The position numbers and the translations under genes are program-made. Shown here in pieces: positions 743 through 46,800 of a stretch of 64,000 nucleotides of DNA (position 1 is its first letter; each line of letters opens with the position of its first letter). The notes under the pieces were generated by a model. It was not told the origin of the DNA and ran no database searches. It saw nothing but the letters and a program-made list of their open reading frames with translations. Source of the DNA: a virus (lineage: Duplodnaviria; Caudoviricetes); the IMG/VR virus record IMGVR_UViG_3300033485_000007, positions 1 to 64,000 of that record. One strand, 5' to 3'.

Positions 743-1858
743 ATGATCACAATGCGCGGTAAGTACAACACGGCTAACGTCATGATTGACGAGATTGACG
801 CGACAACCAAGGATCAGATTCAGGGATTTCTCAACCACCCGGCCTTCGGTAATACGTACATCGCAATCATGCCGGACTGCCACGCTGGCAAAGGCGCCGT
901 CGTTGGCTTCACGATGAAACTCAACAACTACATCATCCCGAACATTGTCGGTGTCGATATCGGGTGCGGCATGCTTGCGGCGAACTTCGGTAACGTGAGC
1001 GTCGACGCTGAGGCACTGGACGCGTTCGTTAAGGCGAATGTTCCGGCTGGGTTCAATCTGCACAACAATCCAGTTTGTGAACCTAGCGATGAGGTTAAGT
1101 CTCTGGCGGCGCGCATTGGCGCAGACGTGGACAAGGTTGCTCGCGCAGTCGGAACGCTAGGCGGCGGGAACCATTTCATTGAAGCCGGTCGAGATTCATG
1201 TGGAAACGTGTGGGTTACGATTCATTCGGGAAGCCGCAACTTAGGGCTACGAGTGGCGAATTACCACCAGGGCATAGCGAAGGATGAGCTTGCAAAGTAC
1301 TTCATTCGTGACACATGCAAGGACCTGGAATTTCTACTCGTCAATAGCGACGCTGGTGCCGACTATCTAGAAGACGTTTCGATTGCTCAAAATTACGCGT
1401 CACTGAACCGTCAACAGATGATGCGTGCAATCTCTGGGTTCATCGGGAAGCCGGTATCGAAGATCGAATCGGTTCACAACTTCATCGGTGAAGATGGCAT
1501 CATCCGAAAGGGGGCTACGTCGGCGCGATACGGTGAGCGTGTTCTTATCCCGTTCAACATGCGCGACGGTATAGCCATATGCACCGGACTCGGGTCGAGC
1601 AAATACAACTGCTCAGCGCCGCACGGTGCCGGACGAATCATGTCGCGAACGCAGGCTAAGAAAACGATAGACCCGAGTCATTTCGCTGACGATATGCGAG
1701 CCGCTGGTGTATACACGACAACGGCAAACGCGTCAACGATTGATGAGGCCCCAGAGGTCTACAAGCCAATGGACTCGATTCTTGAGAACATCAATGAAAC
1801 GGTCACTGTCGACGATATGATCCGTCCGTTTTATTCGTTCAAGGCCGGCGGTGACTGA
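743..1858 (+). CDS. rtcB: RtcB RNA 2',3'-cyclic/3'-phosphate-5'-OH ligase
   Basis: MPDCHAG, GVDIGCG, GTLGGGNHFIE, HSGSR, HN, RKGA, SAPHGAGR and DEAP..YK motifs. Confidence 0.95.
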   Translation: MITMRGKYNTANVMIDEIDATTKDQIQGFLNHPAFGNTYIAIMPDCHAGKGAVVGFTMKLNNYIIPNIVGVDIGCGMLAANFGNVSVDAEALDAFVKANVPAGFNLHNNPVCEPSDEVKSLAARIGADVDKVARAVGTLGGGNHFIEAGRDSCGNVWVTIHSGSRNLGLRVANYHQGIAKDELAKYFIRDTCKDLEFLLVNSDAGADYLEDVSIAQNYASLNRQQMMRAISGFIGKPVSKIESVHNFIGEDGIIRKGATSARYGERVLIPFNMRDGIAICTGLGSSKYNCSAPHGAGRIMSRTQAKKTIDPSHFADDMRAAGVYTTTANASTIDEAPEVYKPMDSILENINETVTVDDMIRPFYSFKAGGD

Positions 1859-1859
1859 G

Positions 1860-1887
1860 TTGACTCGCACTTGGCGGGTTGTATAAT
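1860..1887 (+). promoter_or_regulatory. sigma70-type promoter, leaderless transcript for denV
   Basis: TTGACT-N16-TATAAT, 6 nt upstream of ATG 1894, no SD. Confidence 0.65.
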
Positions 1888-1893
1888 AGACCG

Positions 1894-2307
1894 ATGACTC
1901 GCATCAACATCGGCGTCCACCCGTCTGAAATATGTGACCAGCATCTAGTGGCGGAGTATCGTGAACTTCCCCGTCTATGGGGTCTAGATTCGCGCCAGAA
2001 ACCGCCTACTCGATTCAAGCTTGGGACGGGGCACGTCCTGTTCTGCGCTCAGTATCAGGGCACCTTAGCTGACAGATACACGGCCTTGGTCGGTGAGATG
2101 CGGCGTCGCGGTTTCAGGGTGAGCTACCCGGACCCGCCCCCGGGCGCGATAGGTGGCAAGCGAATGAGCGATAACGAGATCCAGGAGGCGAGACCTATTG
2201 TGATGGAACGGTTGCGAGAGAAACATGCGACGATGAAGAGGCCTCCGCGGTGGACTGCTGCCAATGATTCGACCGCGAAATCGACTTGGTACGAAACCCA
2301 GACCTGA
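1894..2307 (+). CDS. denV: pyrimidine-dimer DNA glycosylase / T4 endonuclease V homolog
   Basis: MTRIN..DQHLVAEYRELPR...F.LGTGHV.F...EM.RRGF; catalytic Thr2 and Glu retained. Confidence 0.92.
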   Translation: MTRINIGVHPSEICDQHLVAEYRELPRLWGLDSRQKPPTRFKLGTGHVLFCAQYQGTLADRYTALVGEMRRRGFRVSYPDPPPGAIGGKRMSDNEIQEARPIVMERLREKHATMKRPPRWTAANDSTAKSTWYETQT

Positions 2308-2357
2308 AACCGAAGAGACTCGACGAGTGCATGGTGTGCGAGATTTAGAGGAAAACA

Positions 2358-3233
2358 ATGACAGGTGACCAACTAATCGGATTGCTCGGCGCGTACAACG
2401 ATGGTGACCGAGAAAGGTTCCGAGGGATAGCGCAACAGGCAATCTGTGGCCTGAGAGGCGAACGCGACAAGGAGCGGGCTAGACAGATACTCGCCGCCTG
2501 CAACGATGATGCTAGCGGTGTTCTGTTGCGCACGCTTGGCCCAAAAGACAGTGGACTCGTGTATCAGTTGCCGCCGGTTGATCTTGATAAGCTCCATCTG
2601 TCCGCGCCGCTAAAGGGCGAACTGGGCTCGATTGTTGGTGAGCGGTCAAAGCTCGACGTGTTGGAGCGCCACAGCATCCCGCCACGGTCCAAGATACTGC
2701 TACATGGACCGCCAGGGAATGGGAAGACATCGATTGCGGCTGGGTTAGCAAAGGCAGCGCGATTACCAGGTTTCGGCGCGTTACTATCGCAAGCTCGAGA
2801 CGGTTTTCTTGGCGCAACATCGGCTCATTTGCATAAGATTTTCCAAGTAGTTGCCACCGGTTGCTGCGCGTTGCTGTTTCTCGATGAGTTCGACGCGCTG
2901 GCAACGGCTCGATTCGACGCGAAAGAGGGCGCAGGTCGAGAACAAAACGCAATCACGTCGTCGATTCTCCAGATGCTCGACAATAGACCGCAGGGCATCG
3001 TGGTCGCCGCAACGAATCGGCTCGATATGCTGGACGGGGCGATTCTACGGCGTTTCGACGTTACGATAGAAGTACCTAGCCCAAGCAGGGAAGCGGCCGA
3101 TCTGTTTTGCTCGTCCGTATTCGACCGTCACAACATGGCTCGCGATGGGTTCGAACCGCCCGACGTGAGCTCATTTGCGGCGGTTGAGCGAGATGCCGTG
3201 GGCTACATTCGCAAGGTGATACTCGGCTCGTGA
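2358..3233 (+). CDS. AAA+ ATPase (IetA-like architecture)
   Basis: Walker A GPPGNGKT, Walker B LFLDEFD, ATN..D.LD.AI.RRFD; short helical N-domain. Confidence 0.85.
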   Translation: MTGDQLIGLLGAYNDGDRERFRGIAQQAICGLRGERDKERARQILAACNDDASGVLLRTLGPKDSGLVYQLPPVDLDKLHLSAPLKGELGSIVGERSKLDVLERHSIPPRSKILLHGPPGNGKTSIAAGLAKAARLPGFGALLSQARDGFLGATSAHLHKIFQVVATGCCALLFLDEFDALATARFDAKEGAGREQNAITSSILQMLDNRPQGIVVAATNRLDMLDGAILRRFDVTIEVPSPSREAADLFCSSVFDRHNMARDGFEPPDVSSFAAVERDAVGYIRKVILGS

Positions 3234-3303
3234 CGGGTTGCGCGCGTGGAAAAGTGTGCTAAATCTAGTGAATGTCGACCGAATCCACCAAAGTAGGCGC
3301 CGC

Positions 3304-4116
3304 ATGAAACAGAATTGGCTTGGTGACATCGAGCACCTGGAACGATTTGAGCCGTTTATTGACCACGATAGCGTTACTCAGCTCAAGGATTACTTCCGGC
3401 TAGGAGGCCTAGCTAGGTTCGAAAAGAGCCCGCTAGCCACTCAGCTCTACCGCGCTGAAATGTACGCGTCGAACATCGCTCCATGCCTCTATTGCGGTGG
3501 CACTCGTCACTCGGAAGACCCAAGTCTGGACGTAGGTGGCGCCGGATTCATCATGATGCTGTCATCCCTCACACCGACGATGCTTTCCAGGGTCAAGCGC
3601 GAGATAGGTCGCGAGGCAGCGTCAACTATTCAGTTGACCGATGGCGTAGACTGCCCGGTGTGCAACAAGACTGGGTGGGTGGTAACCAGTCGACGAAAGA
3701 GCGGCGGCGAGCAACTGACAGCCAAACCAAACGGGATGGCTAGCCCTGGCATGACGCACGACAGCGACATTGACGTTGCGCTAGGAACATGTGCTTTCGT
3801 TGCTCGGATCATTGACAAAGCCGACGTGCTTTTCCCGATGACCACAACGGTCCTCGCATCGTGTTTCGGTCCGGTGAATTACGGGTCCATTGGCGTGTGG
3901 CACCTGACCCCAGCTGGCAAGACGCTGCTTCGTCGTAACTCGACCTACAAAGATGAGGTGTTGTTTTTTGTTGGCCTAAAGAACGAGGCCGAGGCTAAGT
4001 GCGACAAGACACTATCGGCTCAGCTAAAAGCGGCGGAGACCCAAGCGTCCGCCGCAATCGACGCTGCATACAAGGCATGGAACGCCGCTCTATTCGTACA
4101 CAGGTGTGGTATATGA
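3304..4116 (+). CDS. hypothetical protein with CxxC...CxxC zinc motif
   Basis: CLYCGG and CPVCNKTG; start uncertain (3238 or 3304). Confidence 0.65.
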   Translation: MKQNWLGDIEHLERFEPFIDHDSVTQLKDYFRLGGLARFEKSPLATQLYRAEMYASNIAPCLYCGGTRHSEDPSLDVGGAGFIMMLSSLTPTMLSRVKREIGREAASTIQLTDGVDCPVCNKTGWVVTSRRKSGGEQLTAKPNGMASPGMTHDSDIDVALGTCAFVARIIDKADVLFPMTTTVLASCFGPVNYGSIGVWHLTPAGKTLLRRNSTYKDEVLFFVGLKNEAEAKCDKTLSAQLKAAETQASAAIDAAYKAWNAALFVHRCGI

Positions 4117-4517
4117 CAACCGATCGCGAGTATTCCCCATCGGACGCCGCGGATGCTGTTCTCGGGTGGAAAGGCCGGTTCCGCGGCAAGAGACTGATCA
4201 GGAAGGTGCTCGCCAAAGAGAAGCGAACAGGTCGGCAGATATTCAAGCGCTCGGTCGCTCCGAACGGAAGAACGGCTTACCTGATTACGCGGGCAGTAAT
4301 AGCAAATGAATTCCCAGATTTGTTGAAGCCGACGGTCGAAAGCCTAATGAACGATATACGGCTAAGGATGGATGAGCTAGAAAACAGCATCTCGAAAACC
4401 GTCGCAACTGAGGTAAATAAACACATGTCATCGTGCGTACGGCAGAATTCACTGCTCAGGGTCGAGCTCAAGCGGCTATCAGACGACATGGACGAAAGGA
4501 TACGAAAACTGAGGTAA
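4113..4517 (+). CDS. hypothetical protein, basic N-half (possible DNA binding) and coiled-coil C-half
   Basis: ATGA overlap with upstream stop; composition. Confidence 0.6.
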   Translation: MTTDREYSPSDAADAVLGWKGRFRGKRLIRKVLAKEKRTGRQIFKRSVAPNGRTAYLITRAVIANEFPDLLKPTVESLMNDIRLRMDELENSISKTVATEVNKHMSSCVRQNSLLRVELKRLSDDMDERIRKLR

Positions 4518-4810
4518 AGTTACAGTGTGACTATACCGAAATCGATGATGTGGGGACAAATGTCCCATGTTAGACCCGAGAATCCGCTCTAAGAATGAGG
4601 GCCCTTGGAGGGGGAGTAAGAGGGGGTGGCCGTCTGGGTTAGTCTCGCTCCTCATCTCTATCACGTCGTCGCTCTTCAGTGAGTCATCGAATCATGCCAT
4701 TCATTGGTTTCGATAACACGACAGTTTCCCACCCAGTCCATCGCGTTGGCCTGTACAGCAGGTTGGGCGTCGAGCAAACAAGCTAGCTACCGAGCCGCCT
4801 ACGGGTCATC

Positions 4811-5332
4811 GGTGGCGCTCGATACAGCGTCAGTTCCCAGTAGCACGACCGGTCACAGTCCGGTATGGGCGGCTCAAGTAGCCGAACGATGCCAGTCGCG
4901 CTCGGGTTTTACCGCCGCGGCTACTTTTACCCGCCGTACTCGAAAGTGGCCCACGTTGGCCGACCTGGATTCGTTCAGGTAGTTGGGCGGATTTTTGCTG
5001 TCACCGTGTCAGACTTACGAGTCCCCGTAAGCGCCGAGTAACGTCGGTCCTGATTGGGTTCAGGGAGCACGGTGCCGCTCTATCACACCCGTCGCGCCTC
5101 TCAACGATGCGAAATTCGATGGGTTTTTGGATTGGTGGCTGAGTGGCCTAAAGCTCTCGGTTGCTAACCGAGCTCTCGGGAAACCGCGACGGACGTTCGA
5201 ATCGTCCCCAATCCGCGACATGTCAGCGCGACCGAATCGGTCCGGTAAGGCCGTCAACGTCAGGGGCTGACTCAAGCATCGCGAAACGGTTACCGCCAAG
5301 TAGCGATGTGGACTCGACTGGGTAGCGCCACC
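4811..5332 (+). ncRNA. candidate large structured RNA enclosing tRNA-Ser (minimum boundaries)
   Basis: No credible ORF in 4518-5348. Three nested long-range helices: 4811-4819/5324-5332 (9 bp), 4892-4898/5315-5321 (7 bp), 4951-4956/5306-5311 (6 bp, one G-U). Many local hairpins, including a UUCG loop near 4969. Confidence 0.7.
5129..5215 (+). tRNA. tRNA-Ser(GCU), class II, 3'-CCA not encoded
   Basis: Acceptor GGATTGG/CCAATCC, D arm GCT..AGC, anticodon stem CTCGG-TT GCT AA-CCGAG, long variable arm with GAAA loop, T arm GGACG-TTCGAAT-CGTCC, discriminator G followed by CGA. Confidence 0.95.
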
Positions 5333-5348
5333 TAAAGCGCAACAACAC

Positions 5349-5531
5349 ATGAAACGCCCACCAGCAGGGATAGAGATAACGGTCAACCGTGAGATATCGC
5401 AGCCGATTATCGAAGACGCTACCGTTGGCGTGGGCAGCATCGTGACGCTAGCGGGATTCGGGCTCGACGACGATGCCGAGTTCGAGGTCGTGTGGATAGG
5501 CGTCGACAGGATACGCGTCAGGGCTAGGTAG
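5349..5531 (+). CDS. hypothetical protein
   Basis: 60-aa ORF in operon orientation. Confidence 0.5.
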   Translation: MKRPPAGIEITVNREISQPIIEDATVGVGSIVTLAGFGLDDDAEFEVVWIGVDRIRVRAR

Positions 5532-6012: not shown

Positions 6013-6042
6013 GCGGTTGCATTCCAGTGTAAGTTGAACGTT

Positions 6043-6555
6043 ATGCCGACTGAACGACCGAATACAGCTAAGGCCGACGAAATCCTCGACAGGCGAGACC
6101 ACGTGTGGGAGCTCCGTGTCGATGGGAATACCGTGCGTGAGATTGCTGCGCGTCTCAAGGTCAGTGTCGGAACGATACATAGTGACCTGGCCGCGGTCAG
6201 GGCTGAGCTAGACGAGAACAACAAATACCGCGCTGAAGCCGAAAGGGCTGTTGGCGCAAGCAGACTAGACCGAGTGGCAAAGGCGCTGCTTGGTGCTATT
6301 GCCGTTGCCCCTGTAGACAAAGAAGGCAATCTTGACGCGTCCGCGCTCGCTACGGTGGCGAACGCAGTGGCTAGGGTAGAAGAGCGCCGGGCTAAGCTAC
6401 TCGGCCTCGACGCGGCCACCAAGACCGAACTAACGGGCGCCGAGGGTGGCCCGCTCAAGGTAGACGCCCGTGACTTACTCCTCGCAAAACTCTCTGCGCT
6501 CACGGCTGGAGAGGCTACCGAAGGACAGGCTCCGGCGGATACTGACGCAGCTTAG
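6043..6555 (+). CDS. terS: terminase small subunit
   Basis: N-terminal HTH (TVREIAARLKVSVGTIHSDL), LLGLDA.TK.ELTG..GGPL motif, directly upstream of terL. Confidence 0.75.
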   Translation: MPTERPNTAKADEILDRRDHVWELRVDGNTVREIAARLKVSVGTIHSDLAAVRAELDENNKYRAEAERAVGASRLDRVAKALLGAIAVAPVDKEGNLDASALATVANAVARVEERRAKLLGLDAATKTELTGAEGGPLKVDARDLLLAKLSALTAGEATEGQAPADTDAA

Positions 6556-7825
6556 CGACGACGAAGCTCGACAGGTTCAGTACCTGTGGGAGCTTTGGCG
6601 GCGTCCCGGGCAAGCTCCGCCTGCGAATAACTGGTCGACCTGGCTTATCCTGGCTGGGCGCGGGTTCGGTAAGACTCGAGTTGGCGCCGAGTGGGTCAGA
6701 TACTTAGCCGAGAACAAGTTGGCTGACCGCATCGCGATCGTTGCCCGAACCGCTTCCGATCATGTCAAGACGACAATTGAGGGCGAGTCGGGTATTTTAG
6801 CGGTTTCTCCGCCATGGTTCAAGCCGCGATACATCCCCAGCAAGTGCCAGTTGATATGGCCAAACGGCGTAATCGCTCACACGTACACAGCGGATGAGCC
6901 GGATAACCTTCGCGGTCCACAGCATAGCGCAGCATGGTGCGACGAGCTGGCCGCGTGGAGATACCCAGACGCATGGGACCAACTTCAGTTCGGTTTGCGC
7001 CTTGGCAGTAATCCCCGCGCGGTCGTAACAACCACGCCTCGACCAACGAAGCTAATCAAGGAGCTTCTCGCGTCGCCAACCACCGCGGTAACGCGCGGCT
7101 CGACGTACGACAACAAGGCCAACTTAGCCCCGACCTTCCTCGAGAAGATTGTCGCCAAGTACGAGGGGACGCGACTCGGGCAACAGGAGCTATACGGGAC
7201 GGTTCTCGACGACAATCCAGGGGCCCTATGGAAGCGCAATGCAATTGAGACGGCGAGGGTCCGGGAGCACCCTAGACTGGTCCGTATCGTTATCGCGATA
7301 GACCCGGCTGTTTCGACGAACGACAAGTCAGACGACACCGGGCTGGGCGTTGCCGGGCTCGGGAACGACGGAGAGGTCTACGTGCTAGAGGACGCTACCA
7401 TGCGCATGGCTAGCCCCAACGAATGGGGTAGGCGCGCTGTAGAGTTGTTTGACAAGTACCAAGCTGACCGTATCGTGGCCGAGCGCAATCAAGGCGGCGA
7501 CCTTGTTGAGTCGAACATCAGGGCCCAGCGTGCTCACCTACCGATTACCACAGTCCATGCGACACGAGGTAAAGCGCTAAGGGCTGAGCCAGTGTCCTCC
7601 CTATACGAACAGGGAAAGGTACACCACGTTGGGTGCCTACCTGAGCTCGAGGACGAAATGTGCGACTGGAACCCGACCGTTCCAAATCAGAAATCTCCGA
7701 ACAGGATAGACTGGTTGGTTTACGCGGTTACTGAGTTACTTCCAAGGCTCAACTTGCCACCGGAAGAGGAACTCGATCTTGATGTCTCAAGGATGCTAAA
7801 GCATCACAATTCGGCCTTAGCATGA
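6470..7825 (+). CDS. terL: terminase large subunit (Terminase_6 type)
   Basis: LAGRGFGKT, LRGPQ...W.DE.A.W, TTTP, nuclease IAIDPA..DDTG; start uncertain. Confidence 0.95.
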   Translation: MTYSSQNSLRSRLERLPKDRLRRILTQLSDDEARQVQYLWELWRRPGQAPPANNWSTWLILAGRGFGKTRVGAEWVRYLAENKLADRIAIVARTASDHVKTTIEGESGILAVSPPWFKPRYIPSKCQLIWPNGVIAHTYTADEPDNLRGPQHSAAWCDELAAWRYPDAWDQLQFGLRLGSNPRAVVTTTPRPTKLIKELLASPTTAVTRGSTYDNKANLAPTFLEKIVAKYEGTRLGQQELYGTVLDDNPGALWKRNAIETARVREHPRLVRIVIAIDPAVSTNDKSDDTGLGVAGLGNDGEVYVLEDATMRMASPNEWGRRAVELFDKYQADRIVAERNQGGDLVESNIRAQRAHLPITTVHATRGKALRAEPVSSLYEQGKVHHVGCLPELEDEMCDWNPTVPNQKSPNRIDWLVYAVTELLPRLNLPPEEELDLDVSRMLKHHNSALA

Positions 7826-19728: not shown

Positions 19729-20418
19729 ATGCGGTTTAATCAGATTCCGGAACATCTCACCAGTGGCTTTCGTGCGCTCAAGATCATTGAGCTCCCGTTG
19801 ACCACGCAGCCCCACGGCATCCAGGCAGACACGCCTGAGCAGCAAGAGGCAAGAGGTGGGACTGAACCGGTCAAGGTTATGGTGGGTCTTCGCGCTCTCA
19901 CTCCGGGTGAGCGCGCGGACGTGCTAGCCTCTGCTCACGCTTATGCGGTGAGAAAGGGTGCTAGTGGGGACGTGGAGCAAGGCGCTGGATACAGCCAAGC
20001 ATTGGCGGTCTACACAGTTGCAGCGGCCACGATCGATCCGGACTCGGACCGTCGTCGGCCGCTTCTTTTTTTTGGCGATACTCTAGAGGATGCGGCAAAC
20101 ACGATCCGCTCTTCGCCATTGATGACGGACGATATAGTCCTGTACCTGCGCGAAAGACAGGAATCCTGGCAAGATGAAGTGAACCCACAGGCTCTTACTG
20201 TGAAAGATAGCGAGCTGTACGACATCGCTAGGAAGGCTGCAGAAAGCGCTGATTTTTTGCACTTTATGCGGCCGGCGCTGCTGATAGCCTTAACTCGTAC
20301 TTTGGCGAGTCTGCTGTTAACATCTCTCGAGGACAGCTCTACTATCATCTCTGCCTCTCAAATGGTTGGAGAAAACTCGAGCGAGAGTCCCAAGAAAAAG
20401 CCGAAAAAAAGTGACTAG
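19729..20418 (+). CDS. tail assembly chaperone; probable -1 frameshift at T TTT TTG (20253-20259) giving an alternative product ending 20414
   Basis: Position after tube; both 0 and -1 frames open for ~54 codons after the slippery site. Confidence 0.7.
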   Translation: MRFNQIPEHLTSGFRALKIIELPLTTQPHGIQADTPEQQEARGGTEPVKVMVGLRALTPGERADVLASAHAYAVRKGASGDVEQGAGYSQALAVYTVAAATIDPDSDRRRPLLFFGDTLEDAANTIRSSPLMTDDIVLYLRERQESWQDEVNPQALTVKDSELYDIARKAAESADFLHFMRPALLIALTRTLASLLLTSLEDSSTIISASQMVGENSSESPKKKPKKSD

Positions 20419-20424
20419 CCCCGC

Positions 20425-20928
20425 TCAACCAAGCAGCCCTAACGACTTGTTTGTGACAGCAAACTCGCCATGAAGCTCGATAGCGGAGATGTCGTAAGCG
20501 TGGGCGGCCTCTTCTGGTGTCGAGTAGATGCCAATATACTTTCCATTTCCGTTGACACAGATGTCAGCTTGCCACCTTTTGCTAGCACCGTGCCATGACA
20601 CGCCTTTGAAACCGCTCTTGTTGTCCGTTCGTACGCCGACATTTGTGTTATTCTGGCCCTGCGTGCAGATGCGTAGATTCGATTTCTGGTTGTCTAGCGT
20701 GTTGCGATTCCGGTGGTCAACCTTCTCACCCGGTTTCGCAACCATAATATATCGGTGCATGCTAATCATGTGCCGCTTCTCGCCTTTTTTACGTGGCGAC
20801 ATTCTCGCGGCGTAGTAAGATTTTGCAGACTGGTTCCACATTGCGTACCACTTGTACGCATTCAGCCTCTCGAAATCCTCATCGTCTACGAGAGCAAACT
20901 GTCCCTGGGTTAGCTTGATACGTTTCAC
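20425..20928 (-). mobile_element. HNH-AP2 free-standing homing endonuclease, copy 1
   Basis: VDHRNRNTLDNQKSNLR HNH motif; AP2 SGFKGVSW....W.A.I....G.Y....EAA.AYD; GTG start at 20928. Confidence 0.9.
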
Positions 20929-20934
20929 GCGCGA

Positions 20935-20963
20935 ACCATACCACGCTGCCAGCAAGTCGTCAA
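20935..20963 (-). promoter_or_regulatory. leaderless sigma70 promoter of HNH-AP2 copy 1
   Basis: TTGACG-N17-TATGGT, 6 nt before GTG. Confidence 0.65.
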
Positions 20964-21065
20964 GTCGCGCGCCACTCGGGCTAGATTCAGAATAGATCAG
21001 TCGCGCCCAACATCACGCCTTCGTTGCCATTTGCGCGACTGATCTTCACCTTGAGAATGGATTCT

Positions 21066-21617
21066 ATGTCTGCCTTCTCTCAGTTAACTGAGCACGTCTC
21101 GGTGCCGCCCCGCAAAACAGTCGTTATCCGTGCCGAGCACTGGGCTTCGACTTTCGGTGACGCGCCCGCCAACCCGATCAAAGTGGGCCTTCGTCTCCTG
21201 TCTATCGAAGACCAGGAGACCATCCGCCAGGTCGCGAACAAGGCCGCCCTCGACGCGATTAACGCCGACCTTGACGCCCAGATTGCGGCTCACAACGCCG
21301 TGTTAGTCACGACGGTAGCGCGCGCGATATGCAGTGCGAAAGATGCGCGGCGAGGTCACGACTTCTTCTCGTCACCCGATGATCTCCTTCCCATCGCGTT
21401 AACAGAATCGTCACTAAAGTGGCTATTTGACGAGGTTGAAAAACTAACGGTCGAATGCTCGCCAATCTTTTCCGAGGCTGACGATAACGACGTTGCGGAC
21501 GTCTGTGCGGCCCTTAGCGATGGCGCGTTGAACCGCCTGACCGAATCTGACCCGGTAAAAGCCGCGAGGGTAAGACGGTACTTAGACTTTGTTTTGACAG
21601 AACTTGACGAAACTTAA
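21066..21617 (+). CDS. second tail assembly chaperone-like protein
   Basis: KVGLRLLS matches MVGLRALT of 19729; precedes tape measure. Confidence 0.55.
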   Translation: MSAFSQLTEHVSVPPRKTVVIRAEHWASTFGDAPANPIKVGLRLLSIEDQETIRQVANKAALDAINADLDAQIAAHNAVLVTTVARAICSAKDARRGHDFFSSPDDLLPIALTESSLKWLFDEVEKLTVECSPIFSEADDNDVADVCAALSDGALNRLTESDPVKAARVRRYLDFVLTELDET

Positions 21618-21620
21618 CCC

Positions 21621-23939
21621 ATGGCCAACGATATCGTAGTTAGAGTCGGCGCGGTACTGGACCGCTCATTCGATGTCGTCATGGGCGAGGTCGAAAAGAA
21701 GGCCGAGCGGGCCCGGCGGGCAATTGGGAGAGGGGCAGCGGGGGCACAGTCTCCTATTATCGGGCTTGATAAATCGTCTCTTGATTCATTTAGGAACATC
21801 GAGACGCACGCGAGGCGCCATAGCTCTAAGCTCCGCGCTCTATTACAGGAACAGGTAAAGGCTAACGCCGCCGCTGCCGCACAGCGTGTTATTGATAATC
21901 AGCGCGCCATGGCGGCCGAGGAGCGGGCCGAGCAGGCGCACCAGCTCAGGATTGGTCGCGCGCGTGCACAGTCAGCTGAACGGTCGATGCGAGAGACGGT
22001 CGTCGCCGCAAGAAAAAGAGAGCGAGAAATAGACCGGTTTGCGACGCGCACAAGCCACCGCGCGACGCGATTCTTCTTCCCGCCGCCCGAAGGTGCCTTG
22101 GGCTACGCTAAGCGCACTGCGCTCGATATATCGCGCGGGGCGGGGGTCGACTTTTCGCTCTCGTCTGGCATCGGCAAGGCCCGTGAACGCGAGGCTGCCG
22201 CGGTCGCACTAAGCAACCAAGGGTGGAATCCAGACACCAAGTTCGAGGACAGAATCAGCGCAACCGAGCTTCGGGCCACCGCGAAGGCCCAAGCGGCGCG
22301 TCTTGGCCTCAAGGGCGAGGAAGACGTGATGGCGGCCATGACCAAATTCACCGATGTGACCGGTGATTTGGCGACAGCCAAGGCCGTTATCGGCGACATT
22401 GGGCTTCTGGCTCGTGCTTCGGGCACAAATCTTGAGGAAGCGGCATCGGCTGCGGCGGACATGAGCGCTCAGCTACCCGATTCGATGGACTTGGAGACCC
22501 GTCGGGCCGCGATGCAGAAACTCCTGAACGTTGCGGCGATGGGTGGCAAGCGTGGCGCGGTCGAAATGAAGGACCTTGCGCGCTATATGCCTAAAATTGT
22601 GTCGTCTGCTGGCTCATTTGCTGGTGATCCACAGGACGCAATGGTCAAATTGATGGCCATTTCTCAGGTATCGCGCCGTTATGGCGGAGCGCCGAACGCC
22701 GCTGTGGCATCCACGTCCGTCGCGGCGATGGTTAACACGCTAAAAACCCCTGCTCGCGTCAATCAGTTCAAGGCGCACGGCGTAAACGTCTACGATGAGC
22801 AGGGAAAGCTTCGCGACATACAGGCGATCATCAAAGAATCGATTGTAGCCGCCAAAAACCCGGTCGAATTCAAGAAAATGTGGGCAAACGTGCAGGGCGC
22901 CCGCGCGGTTGAGGGCTTCCGGACGATTTATCAGAAGGCGGGCGGCGGAAAGTCTGGTCTAGAGGCGATCAACGCCGAATTTGCCAAGTTCACCGCGGCC
23001 CTAGACCCCGAAGCTCAGAAAAAGATGCTAGCCGAGGTCACCGGGACCACGGAAGCGACCGCTAACCGATTCCAGCAGAAATTGGACGAGGTTACCGAGC
23101 GTATGGGCAACACTTTGCTTCCGACGCTTGAGAAACTTGCACCAACGGTACTCCAGTTGACCGACGCGTTCGCGAAAGCGGTAGCGTGGGCCACTGAAAA
23201 CCCCGGCAAGGCAATCACCGCGGCAATCGTTGCGTCAATTGCTAGGGCCGGCCTTGAATCTGGAATCCGAATGCTCATCGACCGCGCCGCGACCGCGATG
23301 CTCGGCGGCGGCGCCGGCCAGGTTGCTGGCGGCGTAATTCGCGGAGGGGCTCCCGGTGCAATAGGTCGAGCTGGCTCAGCTGTTGGCGGTGCCCTGTCTG
23401 GTGGCATGGGACCGGTTGCGAATACGATCGGTGTCATCGGTGTCGCAGCGGCATCGTTCACCATCACGAGTGCGATTCTCAACTCGACCAACACTACCGT
23501 TCAGGAGTCACGATTTCGACAAGCCACGTCCGGTAACGACATCGTGTCCAGCTTTCAGAAGCAGTACGCGGAAGCGAAAACCGACGAGGAGCGGGCGGCA
23601 ATAAAGAAGCGAGCCTTGTACAATATCGAACAAGACGAGTCTTCGCGCGGTCCAATGGACAAGTTGTTCGGTAACTCGGACATCTATTTCAAAACGGTTA
23701 AGGCCGTGGAAGACGCCGCTCGTGAATCCGATGCAGCCCGTCAACGCGGCACCGAACAGCAGCAGTATCAGCAGTCCACTGGTCAATCTACGCTCGCTAG
23801 TGACATCTCGATAGCGGTCGCGAAGGAATTGACCGGCGTAATGCAGAAAACGCTGACCGTGCGCGTCACGAATACGGACGAGTTCAAGTTCTCGAACATT
23901 GTCGGAGGCGGGACCAGTGAAGAGCCGCCGAGGTTCTAA
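21621..23939 (+). CDS. tail tape measure protein
   Basis: 772 aa, Ala-rich helical; minor-tail domain (GK.GAVEMKDLA.Y). Confidence 0.85.
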   Translation: MANDIVVRVGAVLDRSFDVVMGEVEKKAERARRAIGRGAAGAQSPIIGLDKSSLDSFRNIETHARRHSSKLRALLQEQVKANAAAAAQRVIDNQRAMAAEERAEQAHQLRIGRARAQSAERSMRETVVAARKREREIDRFATRTSHRATRFFFPPPEGALGYAKRTALDISRGAGVDFSLSSGIGKAREREAAAVALSNQGWNPDTKFEDRISATELRATAKAQAARLGLKGEEDVMAAMTKFTDVTGDLATAKAVIGDIGLLARASGTNLEEAASAAADMSAQLPDSMDLETRRAAMQKLLNVAAMGGKRGAVEMKDLARYMPKIVSSAGSFAGDPQDAMVKLMAISQVSRRYGGAPNAAVASTSVAAMVNTLKTPARVNQFKAHGVNVYDEQGKLRDIQAIIKESIVAAKNPVEFKKMWANVQGARAVEGFRTIYQKAGGGKSGLEAINAEFAKFTAALDPEAQKKMLAEVTGTTEATANRFQQKLDEVTERMGNTLLPTLEKLAPTVLQLTDAFAKAVAWATENPGKAITAAIVASIARAGLESGIRMLIDRAATAMLGGGAGQVAGGVIRGGAPGAIGRAGSAVGGALSGGMGPVANTIGVIGVAAASFTITSAILNSTNTTVQESRFRQATSGNDIVSSFQKQYAEAKTDEERAAIKKRALYNIEQDESSRGPMDKLFGNSDIYFKTVKAVEDAARESDAARQRGTEQQQYQQSTGQSTLASDISIAVAKELTGVMQKTLTVRVTNTDEFKFSNIVGGGTSEEPPRF

Positions 23940-38967: not shown

Positions 38968-39471
38968 TCACTTGAGCAGCCCAAGAGACGCGTTGGTGAC
39001 CGCGAACTCACTGTTATACCTTAACGCTGCTGTATCGTAAGCACGCGCGGCAGATTCGATTATTGAGTAGAGACCTAGAAACTTTTGCTTCCCGTTGACC
39101 TTAATGTAAGCTCGCCATTTTTTCATTTGCTTATCCCAGCATACTCCCTTGAAACCGCTTGTGTTTTCCGGGCTTATACCGGAATTAGCGGCGTTTTGTC
39201 TTCGTGAGCACAGGCGCAAACTCGATTTCTGATTGTCGCGCGTATTGTGTTTGATGTGGTCAACGGACTCTCCGTCTTTGGCATTCATGACCTCCCGGTG
39301 CATGTAAATTCTACGCTTCTCACCTCCATCGGCTTTTTTCGAGTTCCTCACCGCGTAGTACGATTTTGTGGACGGACACCACTTCGAGTGCCACTTGTGA
39401 AGAATTAATTCATCATAATCCTCATCGTCAACAAGCGCTACTTGTCCTTGAGTCAACGGTATAGTTTTCAT
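38968..39471 (-). mobile_element. HNH-AP2 free-standing homing endonuclease, copy 2
   Basis: VDHIKHNTRDNQKSSLR plus AP2 domain; same 168-codon length as copy 1. Confidence 0.9.
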
Positions 39472-39479
39472 ATCGCGCG

Positions 39480-39548
39480 ATATTAGCACAGACCAGAGCG
39501 CAAGTCAATCAGGCGTGGTTTGACAGGTGGCATAGTTCGTGCTATACT
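39480..39548. promoter_or_regulatory. back-to-back divergent sigma70 promoters
   Basis: - strand TTGACT(39508-39503)-N17-TAATAT; + strand TTGACA(39520-39525)-N17-TATACT(39543-39548), ATG 6 nt later. Confidence 0.75.
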
Positions 39549-42261: not shown

Positions 42262-42425
42262 GCCACGTTACCGCCATTCTTCGCGCAATCGAAATCCTTG
42301 AGCCGCTCGTTACGCAAACGGTCGAATGGATCCAGGGTGGCGTGAAGCCCGAGTTCATGTCCACGCTGCCGCCCGTTGCGCGCTCGCGAATCGCATATAA
42401 CGCGACACGAGCCGGGCTCAAGTAG
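42249..42425 (+). CDS. small hypothetical protein (lysis region)
   Basis: 58 aa, amphipathic helix. Confidence 0.45.
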   Translation: MSAISHVTAILRAIEILEPLVTQTVEWIQGGVKPEFMSTLPPVARSRIAYNATRAGLK

Positions 42426-42509
42426 TGCCGTCTTACGATTTGGATATCGAAATATTACGCGAGCCGACTGACGTGTTTGCTCGCGTGTTTGCGGTTGGGT
42501 TGGGAATCA

Positions 42510-43112
42510 ATGACATATCGAGAACTGCCACCGAAGCTGACGCCGCTGAGCTATGCGGGAATAATCAATTCGATGCTCCTGGTCTGGGAGCAAACCGGAA
42601 CCAATCCAGAGCGTAAAACTTGCCGTTTAGCGGCCGCCCAGATTGCCATCGAATCCGGTCTTTCGTCTTGCCTAAACTACAACATATCAGGAATCAAGGC
42701 GCGACCTAATAACGGCAAGACTCACTGGCAGTATTTCAAGACCACCGAGCGATTTTCACCCGTACAGGTTGTCGCCGCGGAGAAGCTTGGACCCGGTTTG
42801 GTTGAGGTAATCGGTAACGATGGCGACAAGATCAAGGTGTGGATTAAGCCTAAGCATCCGTACTGTTGTTTCCGTGCGTTCGAGACCTTGAACGACGCAA
42901 TGCTCGATCATCTACTTACTCTCAAAAACAAATTCCCTAACGGATGGTTGGGTCTGCTAACCGGAGACGCTGGTAAGTTCGCTCACGGGCTGAAAATTGA
43001 CGGGTATTACACAGCAAAAGAGTCCGATTACGATTCTGGTCTGGAGTGGCGACTAAAGCAGGAGCTAGCCAGTGTTTCCGATGAGCACCTGGTTTGGGGA
43101 GACGTGATCTAA
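42510..43112 (+). CDS. endolysin, GH73 glucosaminidase-like
   Basis: AQIAIESG, YNISGIK, FRAF, GYYTA....Y motifs. Confidence 0.8.
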   Translation: MTYRELPPKLTPLSYAGIINSMLLVWEQTGTNPERKTCRLAAAQIAIESGLSSCLNYNISGIKARPNNGKTHWQYFKTTERFSPVQVVAAEKLGPGLVEVIGNDGDKIKVWIKPKHPYCCFRAFETLNDAMLDHLLTLKNKFPNGWLGLLTGDAGKFAHGLKIDGYYTAKESDYDSGLEWRLKQELASVSDEHLVWGDVI

Positions 43113-43462
43113 TGACCGACCCTATCGTTGAGCGCGAGACCGGGAAAGACCACGACGCGGCATTTCTGGCGCGTCTCTATCTCGAGGCCGACCGCGTATC
43201 GTCCCTATTGTCGGACGTCGTGCGACACTTAAAGGGCAAGGTGGACGGTCTGGGCGTCGATATCGCCCAGTCACAAGCGTTCGAAAAGAGGGCCGCGGAA
43301 GCGTTCAATTCGATAGCCGAAACTCAAAAAGAGCACGGCCTGTTCCTGCGAAAAATTGACGCTAACCAATCGCTTATCATCCGCGAGCTCAAACTCCAGG
43401 GTCAGCGCATCACCGAGCTTGAGCGCGACAGATTTCCACCCATGTTCCCGGCGGCTGAATAA
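43112..43462 (+). CDS. coiled-coil hypothetical protein
   Basis: TAATG coupling. Confidence 0.6.
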   Translation: MTDPIVERETGKDHDAAFLARLYLEADRVSSLLSDVVRHLKGKVDGLGVDIAQSQAFEKRAAEAFNSIAETQKEHGLFLRKIDANQSLIIRELKLQGQRITELERDRFPPMFPAAE

Positions 43463-43935
43463 TGTCTATCCGCGATACTCACCGAAGCCGGTCGTCGCCC
43501 AATCTCAATGTCCACCAAACGCTTCACGACTCAGACGCGCGTGACCTAGCGCAGCTCGCGTTTGACGGGGCGGTTGAGGCACAGGTTAGAGTACGCGAGA
43601 TTGAAAAGAAAGCGGAGTCAGCGGCAAAGGCGGCAGAGGAAAAGGCAAGTGCCGCGCTACTGAGCACCGCCGTCGTGCAGGGCCAATTTAAGACAATCAT
43701 AGCTCTATTGTCGGCTATTAGCGTACTCCTAATTGGGGTCGGCAGTTGGCTTATCCTTCGCGTTGACAGCCAGGCCGATCGCGCCCGTGAATCTGCCTCT
43801 GTCGCTGCCGTGCAGGCTGTGCAAGCGTCAGACAGGCGCTTCGACGCTCGGCTGGACCAGGTTGCTAGAGACGCAGCCAGAGAAGCGCTCAGGCTCCGTG
43901 ACGAGCAGACGATCGGAATGGTCGTGAAGCGGTAG
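43462..43935 (+). CDS. single-TM coiled-coil protein (lysis accessory/spanin-like candidate)
   Basis: TM IIALLSAISVLLIGVGSWLIL flanked by coiled coils. Confidence 0.55.
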   Translation: MSIRDTHRSRSSPNLNVHQTLHDSDARDLAQLAFDGAVEAQVRVREIEKKAESAAKAAEEKASAALLSTAVVQGQFKTIIALLSAISVLLIGVGSWLILRVDSQADRARESASVAAVQAVQASDRRFDARLDQVARDAAREALRLRDEQTIGMVVKR

Positions 43936-43951
43936 AGAAAATGTTGAACTT

Positions 43952-43989
43952 GCCCGGTGCACCTAAGGTGTTACCGGGCTTTTTCGTTT
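43952..43989 (+). terminator. intrinsic terminator between convergent operons
   Basis: GCCCGGT-N14-ACCGGGC-TTTTTCGTTT. Confidence 0.8.
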
Positions 43990-43991
43990 GC

Positions 43992-45326
43992 CTATCGTCC
44001 ATTAGCCAGAATAGACAACAAGACATATCGATCGTTCAGAGATTGGTCATCAGTAACAAGCTCGAGTAATTCTCGAAGCTTTATGCCAACAGCTGGTCCA
44101 GGTCCTATCTCAAGTGTGGACATGACATCCAGACCGGTGACAGCCAACTGAGTTGTTGTCGTCACAATTGGTGTATAGGCGCCCATTGATGCGATTCGTT
44201 CTGTTAGCCAGTCTAGGTAACCATTTGGCAGCCCAGGCGCACGCGATACGCCCTTCCCGACACAATCCGCCCTGGCTAACGAGATGATGTCCGAAACATT
44301 GTCGAGTCCGACCTTTCGAGCCCATCTACGAATTGAGGCAGGTGACTTGAGCTCGGGCACCAGATGGTAGCGCACCAAATGCACAATACGTTCTCGGTCT
44401 TCATTCGAGAATTTGAGTCTTCGTAGTATCGCGTCCGCTACATCGGCCCCGGTCTTTTCGTGATCATAAAATGTTGGCTCTCCTGTGACCGGATGCGTTC
44501 CCTTCGTATCGGGCTTAGCGACATCGTGAAGCATTGCCGCGAGTCGCAAGTGCTGCTCTTTAGGAGTTGCATCCGTTACGCGCATGGTATGATCCCAAAC
44601 ATCAAACTCGTGATACTTGTTCTGTTCACATCCGATCATTGGCAGCATCTCTGGCAATACTTGCGCGAGCATGTCCGATCCCAGAAGGATGCCAAGGAAA
44701 CGAGACGGGAGTGGGGAAAGCAATCCCTTAACAAGTTCCACCCGTACGCGTTCAGCGGCAACGCTTAATCGGCAACGCTCAATTGCCTCAAAAGTTTTTG
44801 AGCCGATACTAAACCCGAGTACCGCTGCAAATCTGACAGCTCGTAAGGCCCGCAATGTATCTTCGTTCAGCCTGGAATCTGCGTCGCCGACCGCATGTAC
44901 AACTTTGCGCGCAATGTCATCGACTCCGCCAAACGGATCAACAACCTCACCGCTCAAAGGGTCGTGGGCAATTGCATTGATTGTGAAGTCGCGACGACTT
45001 AGGTCAATCTTGATGCTATCTGAAAACTGTACGCTATCCGGTCGGCGTCCGTCGGAATAGTGGCCATCAACGCGGTAGGTTGTCACCTCGAAGCTTTCTC
45101 CGTCAAGGATGACCGTAACCGTGCCGTGATCTATCCCAGTATCAACGACTCTGGCGAACAGGTTAGCTACCTGCACTGGTAGAGCGTTCGTCGCTATATC
45201 CCAATCGTTCGGGGCGCGTCCGATAATAGAATCACGGATAGCGCCACCGACTAGGTACGCTTCGAATCCAGCGTTGTTTAGCACGCGGCAGATTGATATC
45301 GCGTTTTCTGTCGGGTGGATGTTCAC
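43992..45326 (-). CDS. cca: class II tRNA nucleotidyltransferase (CCA-adding type) with HD domain
   Basis: YLVGGAIRD..D.D, flexible loop Y.DGRRP, RRDFTINA, EDxxR (EDTLR), H....LHD; no poly(A)-polymerase signature seen. Confidence 0.9.
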   Translation of the reverse strand: MNIHPTENAISICRVLNNAGFEAYLVGGAIRDSIIGRAPNDWDIATNALPVQVANLFARVVDTGIDHGTVTVILDGESFEVTTYRVDGHYSDGRRPDSVQFSDSIKIDLSRRDFTINAIAHDPLSGEVVDPFGGVDDIARKVVHAVGDADSRLNEDTLRALRAVRFAAVLGFSIGSKTFEAIERCRLSVAAERVRVELVKGLLSPLPSRFLGILLGSDMLAQVLPEMLPMIGCEQNKYHEFDVWDHTMRVTDATPKEQHLRLAAMLHDVAKPDTKGTHPVTGEPTFYDHEKTGADVADAILRRLKFSNEDRERIVHLVRYHLVPELKSPASIRRWARKVGLDNVSDIISLARADCVGKGVSRAPGLPNGYLDWLTERIASMGAYTPIVTTTTQLAVTGLDVMSTLEIGPGPAVGIKLRELLELVTDDQSLNDRYVLLSILANGR

Positions 45327-46417
45327 GATATGGCCTCCGACATGATCTCAACGCAATCTCTGTCGATTGCTTCGATGTCTGGTGACTTTGGCAGGGCGCT
45401 TGTCTTCGCTGCTTCCTCGAGTTTCGAATCTTCCGCAGATGCCCAGTCACGAAGCTGTTCATACGTCCAAGCTCCGCCGCGTATTGCCAGTAGCTCATCA
45501 GCGTCTGGACGCTTAACGATTACCTTACCGGTCTCGAGAATCTCACGACACATACGGATTAGACGCACCAAATGCATCGCGTGCTTCGTGTCGTACCCGT
45601 GTTTTGCCTCTAGCTCGGCACGAGCAGGATTGCGGGTTGCTTTCCACGTTTGGTAATTGTTCCATTCGCGAAGTTTACCCGAGTAGCGCCTCTCCATATC
45701 GAGTAGATAAATGAAGTTATCGGAAAAACCAAGCGTTCGTGCTGCGCCTTGCCAGAGCTCGGAGTTGCTTGAAATCTCTAGTTCTGCTAGATGTGAGGAC
45801 ATTTTCTGAAGGATAGACTCACGAATGTCCCTCGGTAGGTCGTCGAGGAAGTTGGCGCTCCATGAATCCATCTTCTGGCGGATTGCTGACTCTGCCGCGG
45901 CAAGCTGATCGTGTGGGACGAGTGATCGCTCTGGTAATCCAAATTCAGTTCTGGACGGTTGTGCCAACGGTGGTGTTTTTATCCACCTGTAATGTGTGTC
46001 GATTCTCTTCAATTGAGAAGCCGCATAACCCGAAAACGTGTGCTTCACTCGACGAGTCAAGAACATTTGTCGCATAGCCAATAGCCGTTCGCCGTATTTG
46101 GAAACTTGTAGCCTATCCGATTCGTCAACAAACAGAATCTCGATAACGTTTGGGTTGCACTGTGACGCCAGGCTGACGAACTTCTTTAGGCAGAACACAG
46201 TCAAATCGGGCGCGTTGCATACCACCTGATCGAACCGATGCAGGCCACCTAGGTAGTATTCCCGAGGTGCAATCGCTACCCCGCGAACGTCATGGTCACT
46301 AGAAGGCAGAGCGGTGCCGTACGCGTGGCTTCCGTGGGTGCACAGGAAAATTGTTCGTTCTGGAATCCACTTCAGATTTCCAGAGTATTGTGACCAGTCA
46401 AATGTGTTTTGTTGCAT
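45323..46417 (-). CDS. rlaP: RlaP-like Pol-beta superfamily nucleotidyltransferase
   Basis: HGSHAYGT..SSD.DVRGV, NPN.IE.LF, GYDTKHAMHLVRL, L.AIR.G. Confidence 0.88.
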   Translation of the reverse strand: MQQNTFDWSQYSGNLKWIPERTIFLCTHGSHAYGTALPSSDHDVRGVAIAPREYYLGGLHRFDQVVCNAPDLTVFCLKKFVSLASQCNPNVIEILFVDESDRLQVSKYGERLLAMRQMFLTRRVKHTFSGYAASQLKRIDTHYRWIKTPPLAQPSRTEFGLPERSLVPHDQLAAAESAIRQKMDSWSANFLDDLPRDIRESILQKMSSHLAELEISSNSELWQGAARTLGFSDNFIYLLDMERRYSGKLREWNNYQTWKATRNPARAELEAKHGYDTKHAMHLVRLIRMCREILETGKVIVKRPDADELLAIRGGAWTYEQLRDWASAEDSKLEEAAKTSALPKSPDIEAIDRDCVEIMSEAIS

Positions 46418-46431
46418 TGTGTCTCAACTTA

Positions 46432-46800
46432 TCAAATACACGAAAACGGAATCCATCTGACCGTAAACCCTTTGCGCTCCAAAAACGCGCGCATACGGCA
46501 GGCCCCAACTGGGTTAACAGAATGAATATCAATCGTTTCTGGAAGCTTGGCGACGCGCTTCGGTTTCGCGAGCATCAACCCGCACGCATCGAGACCCGTG
46601 GCCTCTAGTCCCTGGTACAGTGACCGGCAATCGAAATCGTTCAGGTCATGGTCGAGTGACACGCCCTCGAACCGAGCGTACTTGTCGTTATCGAGCGCGT
46701 CTGTGAACTGGTCAATCGTATACACGTGCACCAGCTCACCAGGGTAGAGCGATTCGTAGTGGTCGTGTCGGAATTTGTTGTCGTCTAGGAAAAGTCTCAT
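46432..46800 (-). CDS. cyclic-phosphate-processing receiver (cREC) domain protein
   Basis: LFLDD, SLDHDL, TG.D, I.IHS.NP.G...M; ATGA-coupled start. Confidence 0.85.
   Translation of the reverse strand: MRLFLDDNKFRHDHYESLYPGELVHVYTIDQFTDALDNDKYARFEGVSLDHDLNDFDCRSLYQGLEATGLDACGLMLAKPKRVAKLPETIDIHSVNPVGACRMRAFLERKGFTVRWIPFSCI

Follow-up and report, generated by a model that had tools for sequence, protein, structure and literature searches.

A contig recorded in IMG/VR as IMGVR_UViG_3300033485_000007 is best explained as part of a large, uncultured, soil-type, contractile-tailed phage in which RNA repair is encoded at two distinct loci and a tRNA at a third; these three loci all lie in the first 64 kb of the contig (positions 1 to 64,000, the whole stretch analyzed here and referred to below as the window). 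One repair locus is a gene for the RNA ligase RtcB. The other is a cassette of three genes coding for cREC (a cyclic-phosphate-processing receiver-like protein), the nucleotidyltransferase RlaP, and a tRNA nucleotidyltransferase of the CCA-adding type that ends in an HD domain (the CCA enzyme). The tRNA locus holds a tRNA-Ser gene and, just upstream of it, a hairpin of the abiF-motif type. We consider that these loci probably serve RNA repair with a role in counter-defense, and the most economical reading of the repair genes is that they form two pathways, with RtcB acting on internal breaks and a clean-extend-finish line acting on acceptor ends. The features are listed below with their strand, their length in amino acids (aa) or distance in nucleotides (nt), and the profiles that identified them.

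743-1858, plus strand: RtcB RNA ligase, 371 aa (PF01139, E 7e-68; phrog_1075, E 1e-123 over residues 1-369)
5088-5124, plus strand: orphan abiF-motif hairpin, 4 nt upstream of the tRNA-Ser gene (RF03085, 34.8 bits, E 3e-4 in 1.2 kb)
5129-5215, plus strand: tRNA-Ser(GCU) with a long variable arm, 3' CCA not encoded (ARAGORN; Rfam RF00005, 53.8 bits)
43992-45326, minus strand: class II tRNA nucleotidyltransferase of the CCA-adding type, 444 aa, with PolyA_pol head, RNA-binding and C-terminal HD phosphohydrolase domains (PF01743, E 1e-38; PF12627; PF01966)
45323-46417, minus strand: RlaP-family Pol-beta nucleotidyltransferase, 364 aa (PF10127, E 7e-24; phrog_388, E 3e-63)
46432-46800, minus strand: cREC, approximately 122 aa from the ATG at 46800 (PF20274, E 5e-13; phrog_1479)

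An earlier annotation made without database searches (the original prediction) had named rtcB at 743, a CCA-less tRNA at 5129 and cREC-rlaP-cca at 43992-46800 as parts of a repair toolkit, and our searches agreed with each of these assignments. The profiles of RtcB, RlaP, cREC and the CCA enzyme all scored above their cut-offs, and the catalytic motifs of all four enzymes were intact. RlaP matched PF10127 with 85 bits (cut-off 23) and has the catalytic motifs HGSHAYG at residue 28 and SDHDVRG at residue 40 (hGS and DxD), which were invariant across 20 relatives. We detected 3469 RlaP homologs, the closest being 85% identical and many of them 65-85% identical on contigs of 70-138 kb; PDB sequence searches with RlaP gave no matches. 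cREC scored 50 bits against PF20274 (cut-off 27), and its conserved acidic residues are present (FLDDN at 7, with DD at 9-10, and SLDHDL at 51, with D53). For a histidine-kinase partner, no HisKA or HATPase profile match was found among the proteins scanned. The head of the CCA enzyme matched PF01743 with 133 bits and contains motifs A-D (GGAIRD at 27, DWD at 41-43, RRDFTINA at 111 and EDTLR at 155); its HD domain (PF01966, E 1e-8, residues 241-328) keeps H246 and H267-D268. Head and neck together aligned with the solved CCA-adding enzymes 6ibp and 1miv (E 8e-62). These nearest solved relatives are true CCA-adding enzymes, but judged by sequence alone the protein may be specific for CCA or for A-only, CC-only or poly(A) addition.

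cREC, RlaP and the CCA enzyme are encoded by the last three genes of an early minus-strand operon that converges on the lysis genes. cREC ends 14 nt before RlaP, and the RlaP stop codon overlaps the GTG start of the CCA gene (GTGA). No ligase is present within 10 kb of RlaP. A gene of 243 aa lies upstream of the cassette, and a promoter and terminator scan of 43.3-49 kb gave no excess over shuffled expectation.

The pair formed by RlaP and the CCA enzyme is conserved. We examined JGI and IMG/VR loci in which RlaP is at least 67% identical to that of the window and sequence downstream of it is available (n = 11). The CCA gene was directly downstream of RlaP in ten of them (L017, L018, L021-L025, L028, L036 and G004, the exception being L026), where it usually overlapped RlaP or started within a few bases of it. 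Outside this close RlaP clade adjacency was rare, with RlaP and the CCA gene within 10 kb of each other in 2 of the 26 records that hold both. The slot upstream of RlaP was variable: it contains cREC in the window, a Macro gene overlapping the RlaP start in L022, L023, L025 and L027, and TnpB, a T5orf172 protein or unidentified genes in other relatives. cREC adjoined RlaP or was within 2.3 kb of it in three more distant records (G030, G006 and G007), and Macro was within 1.5 kb in two. The occurrence of Macro in this slot suggests that some relatives may clean a different blocking group, namely ADP-ribose or its phosphate.

The nearest carrier of the cassette is G004, an IMG/VR record of 137.6 kb (86% complete), in which RlaP and the CCA enzyme overlap in the same order and in which RtcB, a Prs-like phosphoribosyltransferase and NAMPT are also present. 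Its genes are arranged as RtcB, a gene for a 548-aa protein, RlaP and CCA, with an array of 26 tRNAs 2.7 kb off. It differs from the window in that RtcB is 1.8 kb upstream of RlaP, neither cREC nor Macro is present, and the record has 27 tRNAs; it represents an otherwise unrelated phage, which shares only 11 of 129 proteins with the contig, including RlaP (71% identical), NAMPT (68%), the CCA enzyme (56%) and the Prs-like protein (53%). This comparison argues that RlaP-CCA moves between unrelated phages as a unit, whereas RtcB was acquired separately. The 548-aa protein (G004 20416-22062; L117:416-2062) had no Pfam match and is a candidate RNA-repair component.

RtcB scored 230 bits against PF01139, the curated cut-off being 27, and its motifs are complete (DIGCG at 72-76, GNHF at 142-145, HSGSR at 161-165, HN at 245-246 and HGAGR at 294-298). 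The metal-binding Asp, Cys and His residues and the guanylylated His (in HGAGR) align with those of the solved Thermus homolog 2epg (TTHA1785). RtcB enzymes join 3'-phosphate or 2',3'-cyclic phosphate ends to 5'-OH ends only, and a GTP- and Mn-dependent joining of such ends would be predicted for the window protein. Because only these ends are joined, RtcB suits damage caused by metal-independent RNases such as PrrC, colicins and HEPN enzymes; it would be unsuited to nucleases that leave 3'-OH and 5'-phosphate ends, as expected of the PARIS Toprim nuclease. Thus, among the host systems that had been proposed as targets, nucleases of the PrrC type are compatible with this chemistry, whereas a nuclease of the PARIS type probably is not. 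Downstream of RtcB (1879-3233, plus strand) are genes for a DenV-like pyrimidine-dimer glycosylase and then a classical AAA ATPase, and in three IMG/VR contigs (L011-L013) a homolog of the latter (38% identical) lies downstream of a distant RlaP, at approximately 0.8 kb.

Gene identities, intact active-site motifs, the geometry of the operon and the conservation of the RlaP-CCA pair are what these data show; from them we infer which substrates are used, in which order the enzymes act and that they serve counter-defense, as follows. RtcB would directly reseal RNAs, most plausibly tRNA anticodon loops, that were cut by metal-independent RNases and carry 2',3'-cyclic phosphate and 5'-OH ends. On the acceptor side, a terminal cyclic phosphate or phosphate would be opened and removed by cREC, by the CCA enzyme's HD domain or by both. 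The cREC family has been predicted to resolve cyclic phosphates (PMC7824862, PMC9503650), and for the E. coli CCA enzyme, removal of 2',3'-cyclic phosphate is attributed to its HD domain in PMC6961547, citing Yakunin 2004. RlaP would then extend an over-trimmed 3'-OH end by one or two untemplated nucleotides; losses beyond position 74 would have to be made good by RlaP, since the CCA enzyme cannot replace those nucleotides. Finally, the CCA-adding enzyme would rebuild C74-C75-A76. The restoration of lost nucleotides by RlaP was predicted previously (PMC7824862, PMC9503650), and a recent study reported that RlaP attaches one or two nucleoside monophosphates to 3'-OH ends of RNA, with a preference for damaged RNA, and that over-damaged tRNA does not regain aminoacylation without it (bioRxiv 10.64898/2025.12.29.696909). 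According to the same authors, the 3'-OH product of RlaP is unusable by RtcB. Because RlaP products carry a 3'-OH that RtcB cannot seal, the repair genes look like two pathways and not one. The tRNA-Ser(GCU) would be a replacement tRNA, itself in need of CCA addition. The abiF-type hairpin would be released from the 5' side of the tRNA by tRNA processing, and it could act as an antitoxin mimic by binding an AbiF-type HEPN RNase of the host.

The tRNA-Ser gene is the sole tRNA gene in the 76.6 kb available, and its discriminator, G5215, is followed by CGA and not by CCA. It should be noted that a whole-window Rfam scan at the gathering threshold reported nothing, not even this tRNA, whereas a local scan scored it at 53.8 bits. 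The whole RF03085 model (1-37) aligned with the hairpin, its loop 15-mer is an exact match, and its outer stem pairs in 6 of 6 positions. No match to the Abi_2 protein (PF07751) was found in the contig, and a tRNA gene follows the hairpin instead. We detected the 15-nt loop core of the motif in at least 117 viral contigs (L200-L316). In 87 of the 117 instances the outer stem paired at 6 of 6 positions, using 43 different arm sequences; when arms were swapped between loci, full pairing was obtained in only 15%. A tRNA on the same strand started 4-9 nt downstream of the motif in 17 of 117 cases, and 13 of these 17 were tRNA-Arg(UCU). In three contigs with the loop core a tRNA ended 8 nt upstream, and ten more had a tRNA within 300 nt. 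Among open reading frames (ORFs) downstream of viral abiF motifs, Abi_2 was found in 1 of 40.

The known counterpart of this hairpin is the AbiF/RCd22 type III-like toxin-antitoxin system, whose AbiF-binding motif it matches and in which abiF-motif RNA neutralizes the AbiF HEPN RNase toxin by direct binding, in cis as well as in trans (bioRxiv 10.1101/2025.04.15.648962). The window differs from this system in having a single copy of the motif that is fused to a tRNA, scores just under the Rfam threshold and is not accompanied by an abiF gene; the hairpin would be a candidate neutralizer. Mimicry of antitoxin RNA by a phage has a proven precedent in the pseudo-ToxI of PhiTE (PMC3475682), and a cyanophage has previously been reported to carry an orphan abiF RNA; no description of the hairpin-tRNA fusion was found in the literature. 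We hypothesize that the hairpin is a candidate antitoxin-RNA mimic, which would fit the RNA-conflict theme of the other loci. Two further links were considered and rejected. RlaP appeared enriched in phages with the abiF-tRNA arrangement (4 of 30 versus 0 of 20), but all four had large genomes, which points to an effect of genome size and not to linkage. A connection of tRNA-Ser to the MenT3-type nucleotidyltransferase toxins that extend tRNA-Ser ends (PMC11541572) was unsupported, as the CCA enzyme does not remove extra nucleotides.

It is possible, though we regard it as rather speculative, that all these elements form one layered answer to HEPN-type and other metal-independent tRNA nucleases, composed of an orphan abiF decoy released from the tRNA-Ser precursor by RNase P, a replacement tRNA, resealing of anticodon cuts by RtcB, and a mobile RlaP-CCA/HD module for acceptor ends that are over-trimmed or modified, with a swappable end-cleaner (cREC for cyclic phosphate, Macro for ADP-ribose). 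If this were true, the hairpin-tRNA fusion, which at least 17 further viral contigs share, would represent a general route, so far undescribed, by which phages produce decoy RNAs against Abi systems.

The window covers the first 64 kb of the contig, which is 76,652 bp (76.6 kb) long and lacks terminal repeats. CheckV estimated the completeness of the contig at 55%, which implies a genome of approximately 140 kb, so that the contig is a fragment and approximately 45% of the genome is missing. Its GC content is 52-59%. The plus strand at 6.4-34 kb encodes terminase, portal, protease, major capsid, tail sheath and tape-measure proteins, the minus-strand blocks at 34-39 kb and 44-66 kb contain small early genes, and the remaining contig codes for DnaN, an N6/N4 methylase, a Prs-like protein with NAMPT, a sigma factor and DnaB. 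A megablast search with 40-48 kb against 50,697 phage records returned zero matches. Cultured relatives of the capsid protein were all distant (at most 32% identity over part of the length), and only three structural relatives were found in IMG/VR, two of which are tiny fragments; the sizeable one is G001 (58.6 kb, 47% capsid identity).

We then compared the distribution of the repair genes, using the same 50,697 phage records for family counts and 50 RlaP-bearing IMG/VR viral records for co-occurrence. As IMG/VR scans with a single RlaP sequence gave only relatives of at most 30% identity, an alignment query was used instead. RtcB homologs occurred in 707 of the phage records, RlaP homologs in 419 and CCA enzyme homologs in 405; among the 50 RlaP-bearing records, a PolyA_pol-head enzyme was found in 26, cREC in 10 and RtcB in 9. 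RtcB was within 5 kb of RlaP in three of the 50 (G004, G031 and G037). A Myrna-like mycobacteriophage had the CCA enzyme and RlaP only. Each family is thus common in phages, and their combination is rarer. The original prediction had considered so much RNA-repair content unusual for a phage of this size. This was not confirmed, since the contig is only 55% complete and falls in a size class where such genes are expected, and since RtcB, RlaP and the CCA enzyme each occur in hundreds of records.

Several of these observations weigh against a single repair and counter-defense kit. RtcB is located 42 kb from the cassette in the same contig, and it is 33% identical to RtcB of G004, versus 71% for RlaP; because of this difference, the two appear to have been acquired separately. 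None of the 50 RlaP-bearing records had RtcB, the CCA enzyme and cREC together. cREC was not found in the closest RlaP-CCA cassettes, whose upstream slot contains Macro (in four) or unrelated genes. In the structural relative G001, RtcB, RlaP and the CCA enzyme were all not found (cREC was not searched there), so that these three, at least, are accessory genes and not part of the lineage core. A 5'-phosphate RNA ligase or polynucleotide kinase was not detected in the 76.6 kb, which lack approximately 45% of the genome. Finally, the score of the abiF hairpin, 34.8 bits, is approximately 2 below the Rfam gathering score of 37. Thus, co-occurrence supports the RlaP-CCA pair (10 of 11) but not a fixed set of four families. 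As to the counter-defense toolkit as originally proposed, the roles and the division of labor of its enzymes fit the profiles, motifs and published predictions (PMC7824862, PMC9503650, bioRxiv 10.64898/2025.12.29.696909), whereas its unity and rarity were overstated.

These points lead to alternatives, each of which we consider less probable than RNA repair in counter-defense. The repair genes could be independently acquired accessory genes of a large mosaic genome that do not cooperate. The absence of any record with all four families, the different histories of RtcB and RlaP-CCA and the small share of proteins common to the contig and G004 would all be expected in this case. It does not, however, explain why the coupling of RlaP and CCA is conserved or why RtcB, cREC or Macro is repeatedly found near RlaP in unrelated viral records, and we think it quite improbable. 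Simple housekeeping is a further alternative, in which the CCA enzyme, perhaps with RlaP, matures phage tRNAs without an encoded CCA and RtcB takes part in routine processing or quality control of RNA during infection. The tRNA-Ser of the window is indeed such a tRNA, the RtcB-RlaP-CCA cluster of G004 adjoins its array of 26 tRNAs, approximately half of them without encoded CCA, and PolyA_pol-head enzymes are found in 26 of the 50 RlaP-bearing records, which are mostly large and tRNA-rich. However, maturation needs no gene for cyclic phosphate or ADP-ribose, yet cREC or Macro is translationally coupled to RlaP-CCA; RlaP prefers damaged RNA ends; a single tRNA in 76.6 kb would be little to mature; and bacteria generally have a CCA enzyme of their own. 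On balance, housekeeping is unlikely.

The third alternative is a conflict over NAD+ and ADP-ribose, in which the upstream member of the cassette (cREC or Macro) degrades cyclic phosphates derived from ADP-ribose or de-ADP-ribosylates RNA, together with phage genes for NAD+ salvage. cREC has been placed among processors of ADP-ribose derivatives (PMC9503650), Macro replaces it in the same slot in four relatives, and both the contig and G004 encode the Prs-like protein and NAMPT (53-68% identical). It is at odds with this that RlaP-CCA is the pair to which cREC and Macro are coupled, the NAMPT pair being 20 kb off on the other strand, and that among the proteins scanned we saw no ADP-ribosyltransferase, KptA or sirtuin. 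We regard this alternative, too, as very doubtful, but it and RNA-end healing are not exclusive, because de-ADP-ribosylation of RNA 3' ends before rebuilding would fit both. The salvage pair itself (Prs-like phosphoribosyltransferase, L004:6927-7739, plus strand; NAMPT, L004:7957-9429, plus strand; contig 66927-69429) lies outside the window. It was also found near RlaP in L186 and L187 and may be a second counter-defense module, directed against NAD+ depletion.

The original prediction had counted two more proteins among the RNA-repair genes. One of them is the following.

57059-57655, minus strand: minimal class II nucleotidyltransferase, head and neck, 198 aa (precomputed PF26128; phrog_1614/4400)

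This extra nucleotidyltransferase had no Pfam match above the cut-off in our local library, where a PolyA_pol head reached only 13 bits, and a PDB sequence search gave no matches. Its GG..R, DxD and FD residues were invariant across 35 homologs. An AlphaFold model (pLDDT 93.8) was compared by Foldseek and matched the heads of class II CCA-adding enzymes, A-adding enzymes and poly(A) polymerases with probability 1.0, the top matches being CCA-adding enzymes (TMq 0.5-0.64); the protein lacks the body and tail domains of those class II enzymes. Its designation as a CCA-type head is in agreement with this model, and it is probably an RNA 3'-end nucleotidyltransferase. Its membership in the kit is doubtful. 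The family occurs mostly in viral records of approximately 35-75 kb and in proviruses (mainly phages of approximately 45 kb) without RNA-repair genes, and among 39 records that carry it RtcB was found in none and RlaP in three, so that it does not track RNA-repair genes. This distribution would also be expected if the repair genes of the window did not cooperate; however, in three large records a homolog lies within 3.5 kb of the CCA enzyme, and in one of them (L184) the extra nucleotidyltransferase, RlaP and CCA stand in a row. In jumbo-phage records (G017-G021, G024, G025, G044, G051 and G053) a short PolyA_pol-head protein of approximately 257 aa was found in addition to a full-length CCA enzyme, which parallels the extra minimal nucleotidyltransferase of the window. 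The other protein, an ASCH protein given without coordinates, was not recovered: neither PF04266 nor the ASCH-like PF12961 gave a match at E ≤ 1 anywhere in the 76.6-kb contig, and a DUF3850 search was also negative.

Other genes of the contig were observed in passing. An ORF at 6470-7825 (plus strand, 451 aa) matched only the C-terminal part of large-terminase profiles, and an overlapping ORF at 6034-6555 may hold the N-terminal part, so that the gene may be split, frameshifted or interrupted by an insertion. Three paralogous genes similar to AP2/HNH homing endonucleases (20425-20955, 38968-39489 and L004:4073-4579, all on the minus strand) are scattered over the structural and early regions, and all three matched one G004 locus. 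A calcineurin-like phosphoesterase of 180 aa (L004:10533-11075, plus strand; contig 70533-71075) follows a CxxCxxCC protein; as such phosphoesterases occasionally accompany cREC/ligase neighborhoods in the literature, it is a possible end-healing candidate.

The idea that phage RtcB, RlaP, cREC and CCA enzymes act in counter-defense is already in the literature. The RNA-repair sets described in phages by Iyer et al. (2021, PMC7824862; 2022, PMC9503650) consist of the same families, RtcB, RlaP, cREC, CCA enzyme and phage tRNAs, and were proposed to have the same purpose, i.e., the mending of tRNAs that RNase effectors of the host have cut. In those sets RlaP tracks ATP-grasp RNA ligases, and cREC occurs with T4-like ligase, sirtuin or Nudix genes, whereas in the window RlaP is translationally coupled to CCA/HD, no ATP-dependent ligase was seen and RtcB is remote. 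In Pseudomonas, operons of the type RtcB-RlaP-RtcA (Carruthers et al. 2025, bioRxiv 10.64898/2025.12.29.696909) resemble the window in having a PF10127 RlaP with GS and DxD motifs; however, the phage has neither RtcA nor RtcR, and its RlaP neighbor is CCA/HD and not RtcB. Among cultured phages, Salmonella phage PVP-SE1 (Seunavirus, 146 kb) has a CCA enzyme (gp159), an RlaP (gp166, 40% identical) and a cREC gene, but it lacks RtcB, its CCA and RlaP genes are separated by 1.8 kb containing six small genes, and cREC is 32 kb away.

In phage T4, Pnkp and Rnl1 repair tRNA-Lys cut by PrrC, a system also mentioned in PMC7824862. There the ends are healed (kinase/phosphatase) and an ATP-dependent ligase then seals them. 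The window, as far as a role can be proposed from its genes, would resemble T4 in that phage-encoded repair of host-inflicted tRNA breaks serves counter-defense; it would differ in that sealing is a one-step reaction of RtcB and a separate line rebuilds the acceptor end.

Our analysis leaves the basic picture unchanged, as the toolkit as such is of a known kind. The new elements, which are modest, are a conserved cassette of RlaP and CCA/HD that replaces the link between RlaP and a ligase after which the family was named, the alternation of cREC and Macro in front of this cassette, and an abiF hairpin fused to a phage tRNA. Phage RNA repair as counter-defense has been well argued on paper and barely tested beyond T4, and the contig and its relatives provide a compact unit that lends itself to testing, with RlaP coupled to CCA/HD and interchangeable cREC and Macro in front. 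The cREC/Macro swap also provides a handle on the predicted activity of cREC. The RlaP-CCA/HD arrangement suggests that the natural partner of RlaP can be acceptor-end rebuilding rather than ligation, and such a partnership would sidestep the chemical incompatibility of RlaP and RtcB raised by the biochemists who studied RlaP. The abiF-hairpin-tRNA fusion, if functional, would represent a class of RNA decoys that annotation pipelines currently miss.

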